Shown: in pieces, positions 5,383 through 10,500 of the stretch
How positions within the stretch are numbered: the first letter of the stretch is position 1
Layout: every line of letters begins with the position of its first letter
Origin: Promethearchaeota archaeon
Lineage (GTDB): Archaea; Asgardarchaeota; Odinarchaeia; Odinarchaeales; JBHLKK01
Direction: 5' to 3'
Length of the DNA stretch: 16,378 nt
Assembly (NCBI GenBank): GCA_048939465.1
Contig: JBHLPL010000037.1
Location: 1 to 16,378 of the forward strand
The notes under the pieces: generated by a model
Seen by the model: the letters and a program-made list of their open reading frames with translations, nothing else
Databases searched by the model: none
What the model was told of the DNA's origin: nothing
Made by a program: the position numbers and the translations under genes

Positions 5383-8300
5383 ATGTCACCCTCGAATGCG
5401 TTAAAGAGTATTGCAAATGCATTCAGATCCGTATTCCATAAACCCAAGGTAGAGATTAAGTTAGGCAATATTGTTCTTTACTTGGGACTGGGTCTTATCT
5501 TCTTGGTGGCACTCCTATTACGCCTTTTTCCTGCAGCGCTTTATGATCCGCTTTTGAAAGCTTTTGACCCGTGGTTTCAATATCGTTGCGCCGAATATTT
5601 GGCTGATAATGGCCTTTTCTCCTGGTTTACATGGCATGATCCCCAATCTTGGTATCCTTGGGGAAGAGACATACCCGGAAACGCATTCCCGGGACTACCC
5701 ATGGCTGCGGCTACAGTCTTTTACCTTCTTCAATCGATAGGAATATCTGTTGATATTTACACTGTTTGTTTCTTCCTGCCCGCATTCCTAGGAGCTACAA
5801 GCTGCATTGCCATGTATTTTCTAGGAAAAGAAGTCGGGGGGAGGAAGGTGGGCATTTTTGCAGCTCTACTTCTAGCTTTCATTCCTGCTCACATACAAAG
5901 AACCGTCGCAGGGTTTTTCGATAACGAAACCATAGGCATACTTACAATGGTTTTGACAGCATATTTCTTCTTGCATTCCTTCAAGCACGCATCGCCCCTT
6001 TCGGCGGTAGCTGCAGGACTAAGTCTGGGTTATCTTTCAATAACTTGGGGTGCATACCAATATCTCTTCTATCTTCTGGCCTTGTTCGCTATTCTGCTTA
6101 TGTTGGCTCGCCGCTACACTTCTCGTCTTCTAATGTCCTACAGCATTACTACATGCTTAGCAATCTTTATAGCTTCAAGGTTCCCGGTGAACGGAGGTGT
6201 CAACTTCATCTTCTCCGGAACGGGATTCATCGCCATAGGCGTTTTGGCTATTATGGCCTTATATGAGATTTTTCTCCGACTAAGGGAGACGAGATTCTAT
6301 GAATGGCTAAAGGCGAACCGAGTGAAAATAACCATGGCTATCACGGGCAGTATCTCTGCGGCCGTCATTGGCCTGTGGGTGATAGGACAGCTACCTGTAT
6401 TAATTGGTTTTTTGGAATCGGTTTTTTCTCTGTCCGCAAGATTTTGGTCCGTACTCAATCCCCTATCCCGTGAACAGGTCTTCCTTGTTGCCTCAGTTGG
6501 TGAGCATGCAACGACCACTTGGGCAGTCTTCTATTACTACCTGCACGTACTCGTTTTTCTGGTTCCCGTGGGGCTCTATTTTTCGTTTAAGCGCCTCCAA
6601 AATGAAGATCTGTTTATAATACTATTTTCAATAACCTCGTTATACTTCGCAGGTTCTATGATACGTCTACTCCTAATTTTGGCCCCTATCGTGAGTTTGC
6701 TGTCTGCAATAACCATTGTAAACATACTGAAACCCTTTGCCACAATTCTCGGTGAACAACCAACGGTTATCAGGCGAAGGAGGAAAAGAATAACCAGAAT
6801 GGTTGGTAGGGAATACGCTGTGGCATCGTTCGGACTAATCTTCATCCTGTTGACGCTAACAACTTGGCACTCTGTTGTTGTCACCCAACAGCTGTCCACT
6901 CCCGAAATGGTGGGGCTTGGCACTTTTGATGACTGGCGAGAATCTTTTCAATGGATGAGAAACAATCTCGATCAGAATGTCAGGGTACTGTCGTGGTGGG
7001 ATTATGGGTACTGGATAACGACCCGTACGAATAAGACTACATATATTGACAATGGCACGCTAAATTCCACACAGATTGCGTGGATGGCACGTGCCTTGAT
7101 ATCAAATGAAACTGAGGCTCTGAAGATATTCCGCATGTACGATGTAACTCATGTTCTAGTACATTTTGGATACTTCGTTACTGCTCTCAGTGGGGATGAG
7201 GGAAAATGGATTTGGATGGTACGAATTGCCCAAGATCACTTCCCTGATGTAATTAATGAAAGTGAATACTACGTGCAAGGTGAAGGACCAACGTTGAAGT
7301 TCTTCCAATCTCTAATCTACAAACTCGTCTTCTATGAGGAGCCCGGAGACTATTACTACAGTTCCTATGTTGAACAGATCATGAGCCAACAAGGTTATCC
7401 GTCATACGTAGGGTGGCCATCGAGCCCAGAGTGGCGGTTTATTGGAGCGGAGGCTATTTGGCCTGCATTTAGCGAGACGTATGTCTCCACCAATCACCTC
7501 GTCAAGATATTTGAATTAAATTATGATGTTCTTGATTATAACTTGACGATAACTGACACGGACATCTATCGAATAACGACTGAGAATAAAACAGCCGCTT
7601 TAGTTGATGTCAAAAACTCCGGCTCACTCCCCATGAATGTTGATCTTAACGCCAGTAACGTCCTTGCCAACGGGACAGCTATTTCTGATATGGGCGGAAG
7701 TGCGCAAATAGCTGAGGGAAGTTCCTACCTGCTGCCCGGCGAGACTTGCGTTGTGAAGATTAACTTCGGTATTAATGCGACAGAGGGCGAGGCATGGAAT
7801 TTCACCATGGGGACTGTCCAGTACTACGGGAACGCTCAGGATACATCTAACGCGACTGTTCGTCTCAATCAAACAATAAACATGGATCTCATAGGTGCAA
7901 ACGCCTACAGCAATGAAACAGTGATTCTGGATATTAACAATACTGGCGCAGAATATCTCGAAATAACCCAGGCCGAAGTGAATGGGACTAGTAGTGGAAT
8001 CTCCATAGCAAGCGACACAATCTTATATCCCGGACAAAATGAGACCTACAGAATCGTCATAAATCTGGCTACTAATCCGGACCTAAATCTGAATGAAACT
8101 AATTTCATAAATATTACGATCTTCACGTGGGAAGGTGTTAACCAAACTGTTAACGCGACCGTTCAAATACCTCCAGACTACTCTATTTTGATCAGAAATG
8201 CAACTGCTTATAGTAATGAGACCATATTCATAACGATTGAGAACACAGGCAACTATTCTATCACGCTAAATGCCTTCAATGTGAGTACGACAAATGACTC

Positions 8301-9108
8301 GGCACTAGTGCTTGGGGGAGGAATAGTAGGTATCAATGGAACCAAAACAATAGAGGCGAGTGGAATAACTCAATTCGAGCTCATGTGGGACCCAGCGGAT
8401 CTCAATCTCAATCAAAGTGAAATAATAAACACAACCGCCTTCACACTAGAAGGTATCAACAGCACGATGACGGGTCTGACAGTTCTTTTGCCGACTGGCT
8501 ACAATCTGTCCATTACACAATTAATCGTATATGACAATGCGACGGCTTTCATTACCGTGAACAATACTGGCAATTATTCTATAACAGTAAATACAATCTA
8601 CTTCTTTAACACCACATTTCCGTCTCCACTGGCATTTTCCAATATTACAGCTATAAATGGAACCATGACTATTCTACCGGGCGAGATAACTGAATACATG
8701 TGTGTCTGGGATCCGTTTATATTCAATGCAACAGAAGGAACCGATACGAACTCAACAGTGCTGATATATGAAGGATTCAACGTCTCGGCGTATAACACAA
8801 CTCTGGATTCTCAATACGCCATGGGGATTGCCAATGCTACGACTCATGTCTACAGTAATGGCACCATCGTGCTAAATATAACGAATAACGATTTCTATTC
8901 AATACACAACATAACAATACAAATAAAAAACGCAACGACCGGTGAGGTAATATTTACATACTTCTGGCAGGTTACCATAGATTCGTTTGGCTGGGATACA
9001 GTAACTTTCGACTCCGGTCTATTACTAACTGCAGGCGAAGACGTAATAATCCAAGCAAAATCAATCGAGGGCGCGAACGATCAACGAACGAAAACAGTCG
9101 AGCTGTGA
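5383..9108 (+). CDS. aglB: Oligosaccharyltransferase catalytic subunit AglB/STT3 with a long C-terminal repeat extension
   Basis: Multi-TM N-half. Motifs FDPWFQYR, GFFDNE, SVGEH, WWDYG, DNGT and DK motif DEGKWIWM. Confidence 0.95.
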   Translation: MSPSNALKSIANAFRSVFHKPKVEIKLGNIVLYLGLGLIFLVALLLRLFPAALYDPLLKAFDPWFQYRCAEYLADNGLFSWFTWHDPQSWYPWGRDIPGNAFPGLPMAAATVFYLLQSIGISVDIYTVCFFLPAFLGATSCIAMYFLGKEVGGRKVGIFAALLLAFIPAHIQRTVAGFFDNETIGILTMVLTAYFFLHSFKHASPLSAVAAGLSLGYLSITWGAYQYLFYLLALFAILLMLARRYTSRLLMSYSITTCLAIFIASRFPVNGGVNFIFSGTGFIAIGVLAIMALYEIFLRLRETRFYEWLKANRVKITMAITGSISAAVIGLWVIGQLPVLIGFLESVFSLSARFWSVLNPLSREQVFLVASVGEHATTTWAVFYYYLHVLVFLVPVGLYFSFKRLQNEDLFIILFSITSLYFAGSMIRLLLILAPIVSLLSAITIVNILKPFATILGEQPTVIRRRRKRITRMVGREYAVASFGLIFILLTLTTWHSVVVTQQLSTPEMVGLGTFDDWRESFQWMRNNLDQNVRVLSWWDYGYWITTRTNKTTYIDNGTLNSTQIAWMARALISNETEALKIFRMYDVTHVLVHFGYFVTALSGDEGKWIWMVRIAQDHFPDVINESEYYVQGEGPTLKFFQSLIYKLVFYEEPGDYYYSSYVEQIMSQQGYPSYVGWPSSPEWRFIGAEAIWPAFSETYVSTNHLVKIFELNYDVLDYNLTITDTDIYRITTENKTAALVDVKNSGSLPMNVDLNASNVLANGTAISDMGGSAQIAEGSSYLLPGETCVVKINFGINATEGEAWNFTMGTVQYYGNAQDTSNATVRLNQTINMDLIGANAYSNETVILDINNTGAEYLEITQAEVNGTSSGISIASDTILYPGQNETYRIVINLATNPDLNLNETNFINITIFTWEGVNQTVNATVQIPPDYSILIRNATAYSNETIFITIENTGNYSITLNAFNVSTTNDSALVLGGGIVGINGTKTIEASGITQFELMWDPADLNLNQSEIINTTAFTLEGINSTMTGLTVLLPTGYNLSITQLIVYDNATAFITVNNTGNYSITVNTIYFFNTTFPSPLAFSNITAINGTMTILPGEITEYMCVWDPFIFNATEGTDTNSTVLIYEGFNVSAYNTTLDSQYAMGIANATTHVYSNGTIVLNITNNDFYSIHNITIQIKNATTGEVIFTYFWQVTIDSFGWDTVTFDSGLLLTAGEDVIIQAKSIEGANDQRTKTVEL
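7537..9105 (+). repeat. Five tandem ~100-aa beta-rich (Ig-like/CARDB-like) repeats in the AglB tail
   Basis: Units begin YNLTIT / NMDLIG / YSILIR / YNLSIT / YAMGIA and share (A/V)YxNxT..I.I.NTG.Y.I, LxPG and terminal EGxN. DNA echo: aacacaggcaactattctatc vs aatactggcaattattctata. Confidence 0.7.
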
Positions 9109-9111
9109 TGA

Positions 9112-9288
9112 CTATTCCCTTTCTTTCATGAGTTGTTTTTTCAACATTCTTCGGTATTTGCCATAAGGATCAATAACAGAGAATTTCGAAGGATGCGGCA
9201 TGCGAAGGCTACCCCCACAATATGGACACCGATTCTGCTTTAGCGTATAAGCCTCGCATTTGTTACACTTTCGCAGTAGCTTACCCAT
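9112..9288 (-). CDS. nop10: H/ACA RNP protein Nop10
   Basis: CxxC..YTL...CPxCGG...PHPSKFSxxDPYGKYRR. Start moved to ATG 9288. Confidence 0.95.
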   Translation of the reverse strand: MGKLLRKCNKCEAYTLKQNRCPYCGGSLRMPHPSKFSVIDPYGKYRRMLKKQLMKERE

Positions 9289-9307
9289 CTTTCCTGTACC
9301 TCGATTC

Positions 9308-9332
9308 AATCTAATTAGATTATGGATTAATC
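9308..9332. promoter_or_regulatory. Two adjacent palindromes upstream of nop10
   Basis: AATCTAATTAGATT (9308-9321, perfect 14-mer) and GATTAATC (9325-9332). Confidence 0.35.
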
Positions 9333-9336
9333 ATAT

Positions 9337-9588
9337 CTAAACCACTCCTCCCCTGCAGAAGGGGCTTATGACTGTACTTGACCGCATTTCCCTTCCAGGT
9401 TTTTCCTCGCTACGCATGAAATCGGGGGGGGGGTGGTTGCAACGCCCCAGCCCAGCAATCCGCATGTAGCATCGGGCTTAAAGGTTTGCCCAATCTATCC
9501 TCTCGTAGGTCATTAACCCTTTCAACATCAGAGAGTGGTGTGCCTTTAGACTTACTAACACCCATAGCACAAACCTATTCAAGAATCG
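9337..9588 (-). ncRNA. Structured RNA candidate ending in an IS200/IS605 right-end-like hairpin (omegaRNA-like module B)
   Basis: Minus strand ends TAAG-CCCCTTCT-GCAG-GGGAGGAG-TGGTTTAG. Internal stems CTCTC/GAGAG, TTGGGC/GCCCGA, GCTAC/GTAGC and a G-rich/C10 helix. Loop AAACC can pair with terminal GGUUU. Confidence 0.5.
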
Positions 9589-9700
9589 CTCAATTGCTCT
9601 CCTCCCTTCCGGAAGGAGTCTCCTTGAGGTGGTTTAGAATAATGTCATGTGAGCTTACTCTTCATAGCGTTGGTCCTAGCCCACTGAGTTACTGGGGAGA
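9589..9700 (-). mobile_element. IS200/IS605 right-end / omegaRNA-like remnant (module A)
   Basis: CAAGGAGACTCCTTCCGGAAGGGAGGAG aligns to CAAGAAGACTCCATCCGAAAGGATGGAG at 16342-16369 with 5 mismatches in 28 nt, including a compensatory T-A/A-T swap. The 5' hairpin loop CUCAG can pair with terminal UUGAG. Confidence 0.6.
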
Positions 9701-9708
9701 AGGAAATA

Positions 9709-10500
9709 CTATCTCTTGAAGCTGCCCTCTCCTCCTCCGTCTTTGACGACTGCTATTACTTTTTCGACAGTCGCGGCTAGAACCCTCTCGGCAACCTTGT
9801 AGTTTTGAGCGAAGACTTCAACTCTATACCGTGGTGACCCGACCAGGTATATGCTGGTTTCACCCTCCTCCCCCTCGTTTCCGGCCTTTAACCCCTCAAT
9901 GAGCGCCTTCTTGATAACATCAATTCCATCTGATTTAAGACATCTCAACTCAAGATTTCCAGATACCTTGACTCTTGGAACCTCAACATAGGCGTCTACA
10001 ATCTCGCCTAGGACATCGGCCCATTTTTTAGTAATCCCAATTTTCAATAACACACCTATTCCCTTTTCCTTGACCTCCTCTAATCCAGTATATATGTCTC
10101 CATACTTGTCCTCGATCTTCCATCCTACTTCTTTGTACCCTTCGTCCAAGGTTTTACCTAATTTGCTGGCTGCAATCTCGAGCAAATTCTCGGCCTTTTG
10201 TGCCCTTTTCCATTCTTGAATCTTACTTCGTCTTTGTTGTTCTGTGGTCCTTCTTAGGGATAGATCAATATGTCCCTTAGACTTCTCCACTCTCAGAACT
10301 TTTACAACAACTTTTTGCTTTTCTCGGACATGATTCCGGATGTTTTTGACCCAGCTTGACGCGATTTCGGATATGTGTATCATACCCTCCACATCGCCAT
10401 ACTCATCGAGGGTTACATACGCCCCGTGAGATAGTACTCTGTTAACTGTTCCCATAATTATATCTCCAACTTCAGGAACTTCTTGCCTTTTTCTTACCAT
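9709..10500 (-). CDS. eif2a: Translation initiation factor 2 subunit alpha (aIF2alpha)
   Basis: S1 domain (GAYVTLDEY, IHISEIASSWVKNIR, IDLSLRR) and C-terminal GSPRYR. SD AGGTGA upstream. Confidence 0.97.
   Translation of the reverse strand: MVRKRQEVPEVGDIIMGTVNRVLSHGAYVTLDEYGDVEGMIHISEIASSWVKNIRNHVREKQKVVVKVLRVEKSKGHIDLSLRRTTEQQRRSKIQEWKRAQKAENLLEIAASKLGKTLDEGYKEVGWKIEDKYGDIYTGLEEVKEKGIGVLLKIGITKKWADVLGEIVDAYVEVPRVKVSGNLELRCLKSDGIDVIKKALIEGLKAGNEGEEGETSIYLVGSPRYRVEVFAQNYKVAERVLAATVEKVIAVVKDGGGEGSFKR

Follow-up and report, generated by a model that had tools for sequence, protein, structure and literature searches.

A 302-nucleotide gene-less insertion, very probably derived from a tnpB-only IS200/IS605 transposon, between aIF2alpha and nop10 of an Asgard archaeon

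Gene-less PATE-like elements "often encode omegaRNAs", and it is in trans that TnpB must use these RNAs (Meers et al. 2023, PMC10055086). In archaea, PATEs have been described from Haloquadratum walsbyi (PMC3119063), while a PATE-derived non-coding RNA and sotRNAs are known from Halobacterium salinarum (PMC4615843). The architecture of a TnpB guide RNA has been revealed by the cryo-EM structure of the ISDra2 omegaRNA, in which the nucleotides preceding the guide (-5 to -3) are paired with nucleotides -103 to -105 (Nakagawa et al. 2023, PMC10097598). Here we describe positions 9337–9638, on the minus strand of the window (the whole 16,378-nucleotide stretch of DNA that was analysed), as what is very probably a single gene-less, PATE-like copy derived from a tnpB-only (IS1341-type) IS200/IS605 transposon. 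An element of this kind is already published, and its biology follows the bacterial and haloarchaeal PATE work.

Like the ISGst PATE-like elements of Geobacillus stearothermophilus (PMC10055086), the window element combines the left (LE) and the right (RE) terminus of a TnpB insertion sequence, contains no protein gene and belongs to a family of many copies. It also carries an omegaRNA-type scaffold, which a TnpB encoded elsewhere would have to use in trans and for which the flank beyond the right end would be the guide. It differs from the ISGst elements in its Asgard host, in its unrelated sequence and motif (TTCAT-like) and in still containing the TATA box of tnpB together with scraps of its reading frame. 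The haloarchaeal PATEs (PMC3119063; PMC4615843) are likewise archaeal LE–RE fusions that originate from tnpB elements of the IS1341 type, and their RNAs overlap tnpB at its 3′ end. However, they belong to a different lineage, have a UUCA tetraloop motif at the right end and have been shown to be transcribed, whereas our element is described from its nucleotide sequence. The Rfam family HgcC does not match the window element.

The genes for aIF2alpha and Nop10 are part of a PriS-Gins51-L44e-S27e-aIF2alpha-Nop10 cluster on the minus strand, identified from the open reading frame listing and Pfam. The distance of about 420 nucleotides between them, pointed out in a preliminary description of this DNA, is exactly 420 nucleotides by the coordinates of the reading frames. 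The orthologous gap measures about 163 nucleotides in the genus mate G002 and about 30–40 nucleotides in two genomes of the same taxonomic order. The 302-nucleotide unit does not occur in the corresponding spacer of G002 and is therefore an insertion rather than native spacer, the G002 spacer being too diverged to give the boundaries of the empty site at base level. Upstream of nop10, about 50 nucleotides of its own sequence are retained, alignable with G002, and the element sits in the sense orientation of the operon. The features, all on the minus strand, are the following:

9709–10500, minus strand: aIF2alpha gene (open reading frame listing and Pfam)
9680–9696, minus strand: CCCA/UGGG hairpin in the native spacer, outside the element and beyond the repeated unit; other copies are without a counterpart
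9638–9642, minus strand: left-flank TTATT, at the position of the TTCAT target/transposon-adjacent motif of the family, degenerate in the window copy
9337–9638, minus strand: whole element, 302 nucleotides, PATE-like; 5′ end T/CTAAACC, 3′ end GGTTTAG (family consensus GTTTAC)
9589–9628, minus strand: left-end imperfect hairpin, with a basal stem CUCAA/UUGAG, an internal loop, an upper stem CUCCUUCC/GGGAGGAG and a GGAA loop
9576–9583, minus strand: TATA-like box CTTGAATA (family consensus CTTAAATA), in conserved alignment columns and inside the first of two stretches previously proposed as guides ("guide 1")
9508–9553, minus strand: strongly conserved block of leftover tnpB coding pieces (parent positions 814–825 and 861–881)
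9337–9503, minus strand: omegaRNA-type scaffold plus right end (covariance model R1)
9487–9483 with 9343–9339, minus strand: closing helix AAACC:GGUUU of the scaffold
9478–9449, minus strand: stem AGCCCG/UGGGCU with an inner hairpin
9448–9426, minus strand: stem GGGG..CCCC
9419–9369, minus strand: long stem
9365–9344, minus strand: right-end hairpin
9317–9336, minus strand: flank ATATGATTAATCCATAATCT directly 3′ of the right end, at the omegaRNA guide position, about 30–50 nucleotides before the nop10 ATG
9112–9288, minus strand: nop10 gene (open reading frame listing and Pfam)

That the central 300 nucleotides of the spacer are a dispersed repeat was first shown by a BLAST search of the spacer against relatives. 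Searches of the element's own genome (G000) with blastn and an nhmmer profile gave 18 full-length copies, 292–308 nucleotides long and 70–78% identical. More copies are present in the genus mates G001 and G002, several further families of the phylum have copies as well, and five genomes of another family contain relatives of 335 nucleotides. When the copies are aligned together with their flanks, the ends of the family are sharp, with (T)CTAAACCACC at the 5′ end and GGAGTAGTTTAC at the 3′ end, and the sequences beyond are unrelated from one copy to the next. Left and right flanks of the same copy are also unrelated, and no target-site duplication was found in them. A TTCAT-like 5′ flank, a shared motif of the sort the preliminary description had looked to, is present in most copies; the logo of the left flank over 34 copies reads T-T-C/T-A-T, and TTCAT is likely to be the target motif. 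Inside the element there is no protein gene, only overlapping chance reading frames of 42–77 amino acids.

The subterminal hairpins of the left and right ends are alike and are 88–94% paired across the copies. The left-end hairpin is 88% paired over 27 copies, with a compensatory change from G-C to U-A at columns 25/36. Two hairpins with an identical 3′ arm had already been noticed, and the arm, GGGAGGAG, is indeed present in both, at 9618–9599 (with the GGAA loop) and at 9365–9344 (the right-end hairpin). Apart from these end-hairpin arms, which match over 18 nucleotides at 83% identity, direct repeats are lacking in the spacer.

Shorter forms of the family occur as well. Two mini derivatives of about 100 nucleotides, consisting of the first 45 and last 60 nucleotides of the element, are located at G000:C84:8667-8767 and C41:8644-8744. 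In the same genome, the left-end hairpin module (the first 70 nucleotides of the element) is matched in isolation at more than 40 places, and truncated copies are also present. Several related gene-less families with common end hairpins are suggested.

The parent insertion sequence was reconstructed from two contig ends. On contig C70, the first 75 nucleotides of the repeat lie directly upstream of a tnpB reading frame that runs off the contig, while at the other contig end, on C55, the last 145 nucleotides of the repeat start where the zinc-ribbon domain of TnpB ends. The two pieces, C70:1-1001 and C55:5721-6043, overlap by exactly 77 identical bases inside tnpB, and the assembly break between them falls at a repeat. 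Joined, they give a tnpB-only insertion sequence of 1246 nucleotides, which follows a TTCAT, begins with CTGAGAC and ends with GTAGTTTAC. In the parent TnpB, 381 amino acids long, the D-E-D triad is intact and a CxxC..CxxC zinc ribbon is present; the stop codon is located 14 nucleotides before the right end. An intact ortholog from G001 (G001:C109), 82% identical, passes Pfam PF07282 and PF01385 and matches solved TnpB and Cas12f structures. The nearest relatives of TnpB are filed in GenBank under 'Candidatus Borrarchaeota'. Protein matches in the genome comprise six TnpB and one Y1 transposase (TnpA).

Both ends of the element, LE (model positions 1–75) and RE (model positions 158–301), match the C70+C55 tnpB element and G001:C109. 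The consensus of the mini-element is collinear with the parent, containing LE plus the TTAAATA box, two scraps of tnpB (814–825 and 861–881) and the 3′ 150 nucleotides; the unit is thus an internally deleted tnpB element. Comparison with the parent shows that internal deletions have removed nearly all of tnpB and have left the LE hairpin, the TATA box, the two scraps and the 3′ segment of about 165 nucleotides. In the parent, this 3′ segment overlaps the end of tnpB and forms the omegaRNA scaffold and the right-end hairpin. The TTAAATA box of the parent is situated about 25 nucleotides upstream of the tnpB start and aligns to the TATA-like box of the element, which would be the former tnpB promoter. 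The block at 9508–9553 is probably the 5′ part of the element RNA. The same LE hairpin is found upstream of tnpB in C70, C2 and C105. On C105, the TnpA (PF01797, E = 3e-37) is located inside an IS605 with end hairpins closely similar to those of the element, a likeness by which it may be linked to the element ends.

A covariance model (R1) was built from the 3′ 165 nucleotides of 30 copies. The window copy matches it with 123.9 bits (E = 4e-39) and has 39 of the 46 pairs intact, compared to 40 of 46 in the parent insertion sequence. R1 matches 22 places in G000 and further copies in 14 of 100 relatives. Their distribution over seven families of the phylum is patchy, as a mobile element would lead one to expect. 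In G001, G026, G034 and G058 the matches coincide exactly with the 3′ end of a full-length tnpB gene (protein identity 67–82%). The other matches are gene-less units of 300–340 nucleotides, which keep only about the last 45 codons of tnpB. The suspected TnpB omegaRNA-type content is therefore borne out, as a scaffold with covariation that is homologous to the 3′ end of tnpB genes.

In a model-based alignment of 56 sequences, which was fitted to the model and so somewhat favours the structure, 90% of the cells are paired, versus 36–44% when the partners are slid. Compensatory double changes are present in 36 of the 46 pairs (273 cells), and none of 500 shuffles reaches any of the five measures. 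One pair, for example, is GC in 28 sequences and AU in 22, another UA in 26, AU in 20 and GC in 4. In a MAFFT alignment made independently from 27 near copies, the structure is 90.5% paired, versus about 45% for slid controls. The closing helix (columns 159–163 with 305–309) is 92.5% paired among the near copies and 82% when distant copies are included, and its variable pair covaries, being UA in 19 copies and CG in 3. An alternative partner for the closing helix, at the 5′ terminus of the element, is mismatched at the variable position in 21 of the 27 copies. Since the G-U pairs are conserved across the family, the fold is specific to the sense strand of the operon, as had been proposed from the window copy.

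For the 3′ part of the spacer, the preliminary description had drawn a hairpin UUGGGC/GCCCGA with a loop containing AAACC, which would pair with the terminal GGUUU as a pseudoknot. The AAACC:GGUUU pairing stands, being conserved and covarying, but the enclosing hairpin is only 56% paired and is not conserved. Instead, AGCCCG pairs with a downstream YGGGCU at 91%. With the enclosing hairpin not conserved, a nested closing helix is the better way to depict the long-range pairing, unlike the pseudoknot of ISDra2. In other respects the element resembles the ISDra2 omegaRNA (PMC10097598): a multi-stem scaffold is located at the 3′ end of tnpB, pre-guide nucleotides pair with a 5′-proximal segment, the 3′ guide would come from the flank, and the five-nucleotide transposon-adjacent motif (TAM) is the transposon target site. 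Similarity between the two RNA sequences is undetectable, and the TnpB proteins are distantly related (E = 9e-4). Within the scaffold, a C-rich run at 9424–9442 lacks 7 nucleotides in the contigs of two other metagenome runs, a strain-level length variation inside the element.

Directly after GGUUUAG come the 20 nucleotides 9336–9317, the second of the previously proposed guides, which do occupy the guide position in the variable flank after the right end. Similarity within the family stops abruptly at GTTTAC and the flank differs for each copy. From TnpB biology, this stretch would act as the guide. Its full 20-nucleotide match in the genome is found at its own locus only. Likewise, when other targets for the 20-nucleotide flanks of the copies were sought in the genome, each flank matched its copy's own locus only, except for one that leads to a decayed footprint (see below).

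Beyond the identity, parent homology, conserved structure, boundaries and flank motif established by these comparisons, the element most likely works as published TnpB and TnpA biology would have it. Transcription of the unit would start at its own TATA box or reach it by read-through from aIF2alpha, which is possible given the sense orientation of the element in the operon, and the RNA would fold into the conserved scaffold. A TnpB from elsewhere (that of the C70+C55 element) would bind this RNA in trans, with the flank 9336–9317 as the guide. The complex would then cut an element-free site bearing a TTCAT-like motif, after which the element would be restored by recombination. The Y1 transposase (TnpA), of which the gene on C105 is the sole one found, would move the element as single-stranded DNA via the similar end hairpins. 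The window copy deviates from the family in having TTATT rather than TTCAT, a G rather than a C as the last base, one change in the TATA box, one stem with a C-rich insertion and 7 broken pairs among the 46 of the scaffold, and may be inactive.

The alternative that survives best is an inert relic, that is, a mini-transposon lacking a usable guide RNA or mobility, which persists as its deletion brings no benefit. We consider this a real possibility, though a rather doubtful one. The degenerate flank motif, the changed terminal base and the broken pairs are what a relic would have. Several metagenome studies of sediment and mangrove have yielded contigs with the element at this locus, and contigs from four metagenome runs showed no joint of a precise excision, which also fits a relic. 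An exact element-free allele of the site was not found either. Two metagenome contigs skip 9311–9710 and appear to contain the different spacer of a relative. At another locus the element has decayed in G000 to a footprint. Against a relic, the scaffold of the window copy is as intact as that of the parent, and the lengths of the copies are held at 292–308 nucleotides despite 22–30% divergence. Orthologous insertions in different species of the genus are still 78–87% identical, about as much as the flanking coding DNA (83–86%), which hints at constraint on these insertions rather than proving it.

The footprint, at G000:C139:9824-9870, is 24 nucleotides long and retains both termini (CCCAAACCA and GAGGAGCGGTTTAC), while G001 and G002 hold a full copy of 307 nucleotides there. 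It is evidently the product of decay via internal deletion and not of precise excision.

A more far-reaching proposal would make of the dispersed cassettes a selected, scattered guide set for one or a few TnpBs guarding about 20 or more loci, with left ends that double as donors of ribosome-binding sites or promoters for genes starting with ATGAA. This is speculative and, in our judgement, improbable; if true, it would be a host-transposon arrangement undescribed for IS200/IS605 elements. Co-option by the host in a narrower sense, with the element as a promoter or ribosome-binding-site donor for its neighbours or as a structured leader for the regulation of nop10, we regard as more improbable still. 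In its favour, in 8 of the 18 copies of G000 and in the parent insertion sequence a long opposite-strand reading frame has its ATG right next to the left end, the reverse complement of the left end, GAGGTGGTTTAG-ATG, is Shine-Dalgarno-like, the TATA box is near-palindromic and the window element is located inside an operon in sense orientation. However, the left end of the window copy faces the 3′ end of aIF2alpha and not a gene start, and the native sequence of about 50 nucleotides upstream of nop10 has been kept. The ATG-abutting pattern is weaker outside G000 and can also be explained by the TTCAT target (reverse complement ATGAA) together with selection against insertion inside genes.

The copies with ATG-abutting left ends are located on C61, C23, C116, C66, C59, C139 and C27, in addition to the parent insertion sequence on C70. 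Clear cases among the abutting reading frames are FAD-oxidoreductase-like (MKEIDVLIVGAG), nucleotidyltransferase-like (MKAIIPAGGYGTRL) and CBS-like (MKVEEIMT). To such genes the element may supply a Shine-Dalgarno sequence, perhaps also a promoter.

Derivation from a tnpB-only transposon also has to be weighed against a conventional miniature element with terminal inverted repeats, moved by a cut-and-paste transposase. The window copy does have a perfect 10-nucleotide terminal inverted repeat (TCTAAACCAC and GTGGTTTAGA), but the terminal complementarity is interrupted in most copies (at pair 8/305, 21 of the 27 have a mismatch), the flanks are without target-site duplication and the full-length relatives encode TnpB and not a DDE transposase, so that such an origin is very hard to sustain.

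Searches for other RNA families were also performed. Rfam, with families such as HgcC and HEARO, gave no match at the gathering score over the whole window and nothing relevant in 9150–9850 at E-values up to 10; an unrelated RNA family, which the preliminary description had weighed, did not emerge. The search for tRNA and tmRNA genes returned none, and folding of the spacer as a single sequence was uninformative (z = -0.57). Signal recognition particle RNA and RNase P RNA, considered for GGAA/AGCA-like and GAGGAAA-like motifs, were rejected, both genes being located elsewhere in the genome. A C/D or H/ACA guide RNA next to nop10 was likewise discarded, its boxes being unconvincing and the sole C/D match having an E-value of 8.2.

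The preliminary description had read the spacer as a tandem array of two scaffold–guide units, modules A and B, each with a loop-to-end pseudoknot, in a form between omegaRNAs and CRISPR arrays; the hairpin arm GGGAGGAG common to both and the two five-nucleotide complementarities are present, but the spacer lacks an internal repeat of scaffold length and contains one scaffold and one guide position, so that this reading can hardly be upheld. The repeated unit is single, 302 nucleotides long, and the two modules have only the end-hairpin arms in common. Module A, rather than a scaffold unit, is the transposon left end plus the tnpB promoter, occurring once per copy and, in the parent, upstream of tnpB. 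Of the pseudoknot assigned to it, the CCCA/UGGG hairpin at 9696–9680 exists, but this supposed partner loop belongs to the unique flank and has no equivalent at the other copies. The other half, UUGAG (9593–9589), pairs with CUCAA (9628–9624) in the basal stem of the left-end hairpin. "Guide 1" (9588–9569), which includes the TATA-like box, is the same conserved stretch in all copies and is therefore not a guide. Like CRISPR and tandem guide arrays, the element would specify a guide-bearing RNA for a RuvC-type nuclease of the TnpB/Cas12 lineage; unlike them, it has no tandem repeat units.

With the tempting "proto-CRISPR array" removed, the 420-nucleotide oddity inside a conserved cluster of translation genes is now explained by a gene-less tnpB derivative. 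A well-structured Asgard family of TnpB guide RNAs is documented, including the parent nuclease, about 20 gene-less cassettes in G000, the likely TTCAT motif and a scaffold model. It could serve for genome annotation and for choosing a compact archaeal pair of TnpB and omegaRNA.

Elsewhere in the window, the plus-strand gene at 5383–9108, which converges on nop10, encodes an AglB/STT3 oligosaccharyltransferase of 1241 amino acids. Its carboxy-terminal part of about 550 residues is dense with N-x-S/T sequons and contains repetitive Ig-like stretches. At the end of the contig (16333–16378, plus strand), a further IS200/IS605-type end hairpin is present, CTCCATCC-GAAA-GGATGGAG-TAGTTCAC, which probably accounts for the assembly break at that point.
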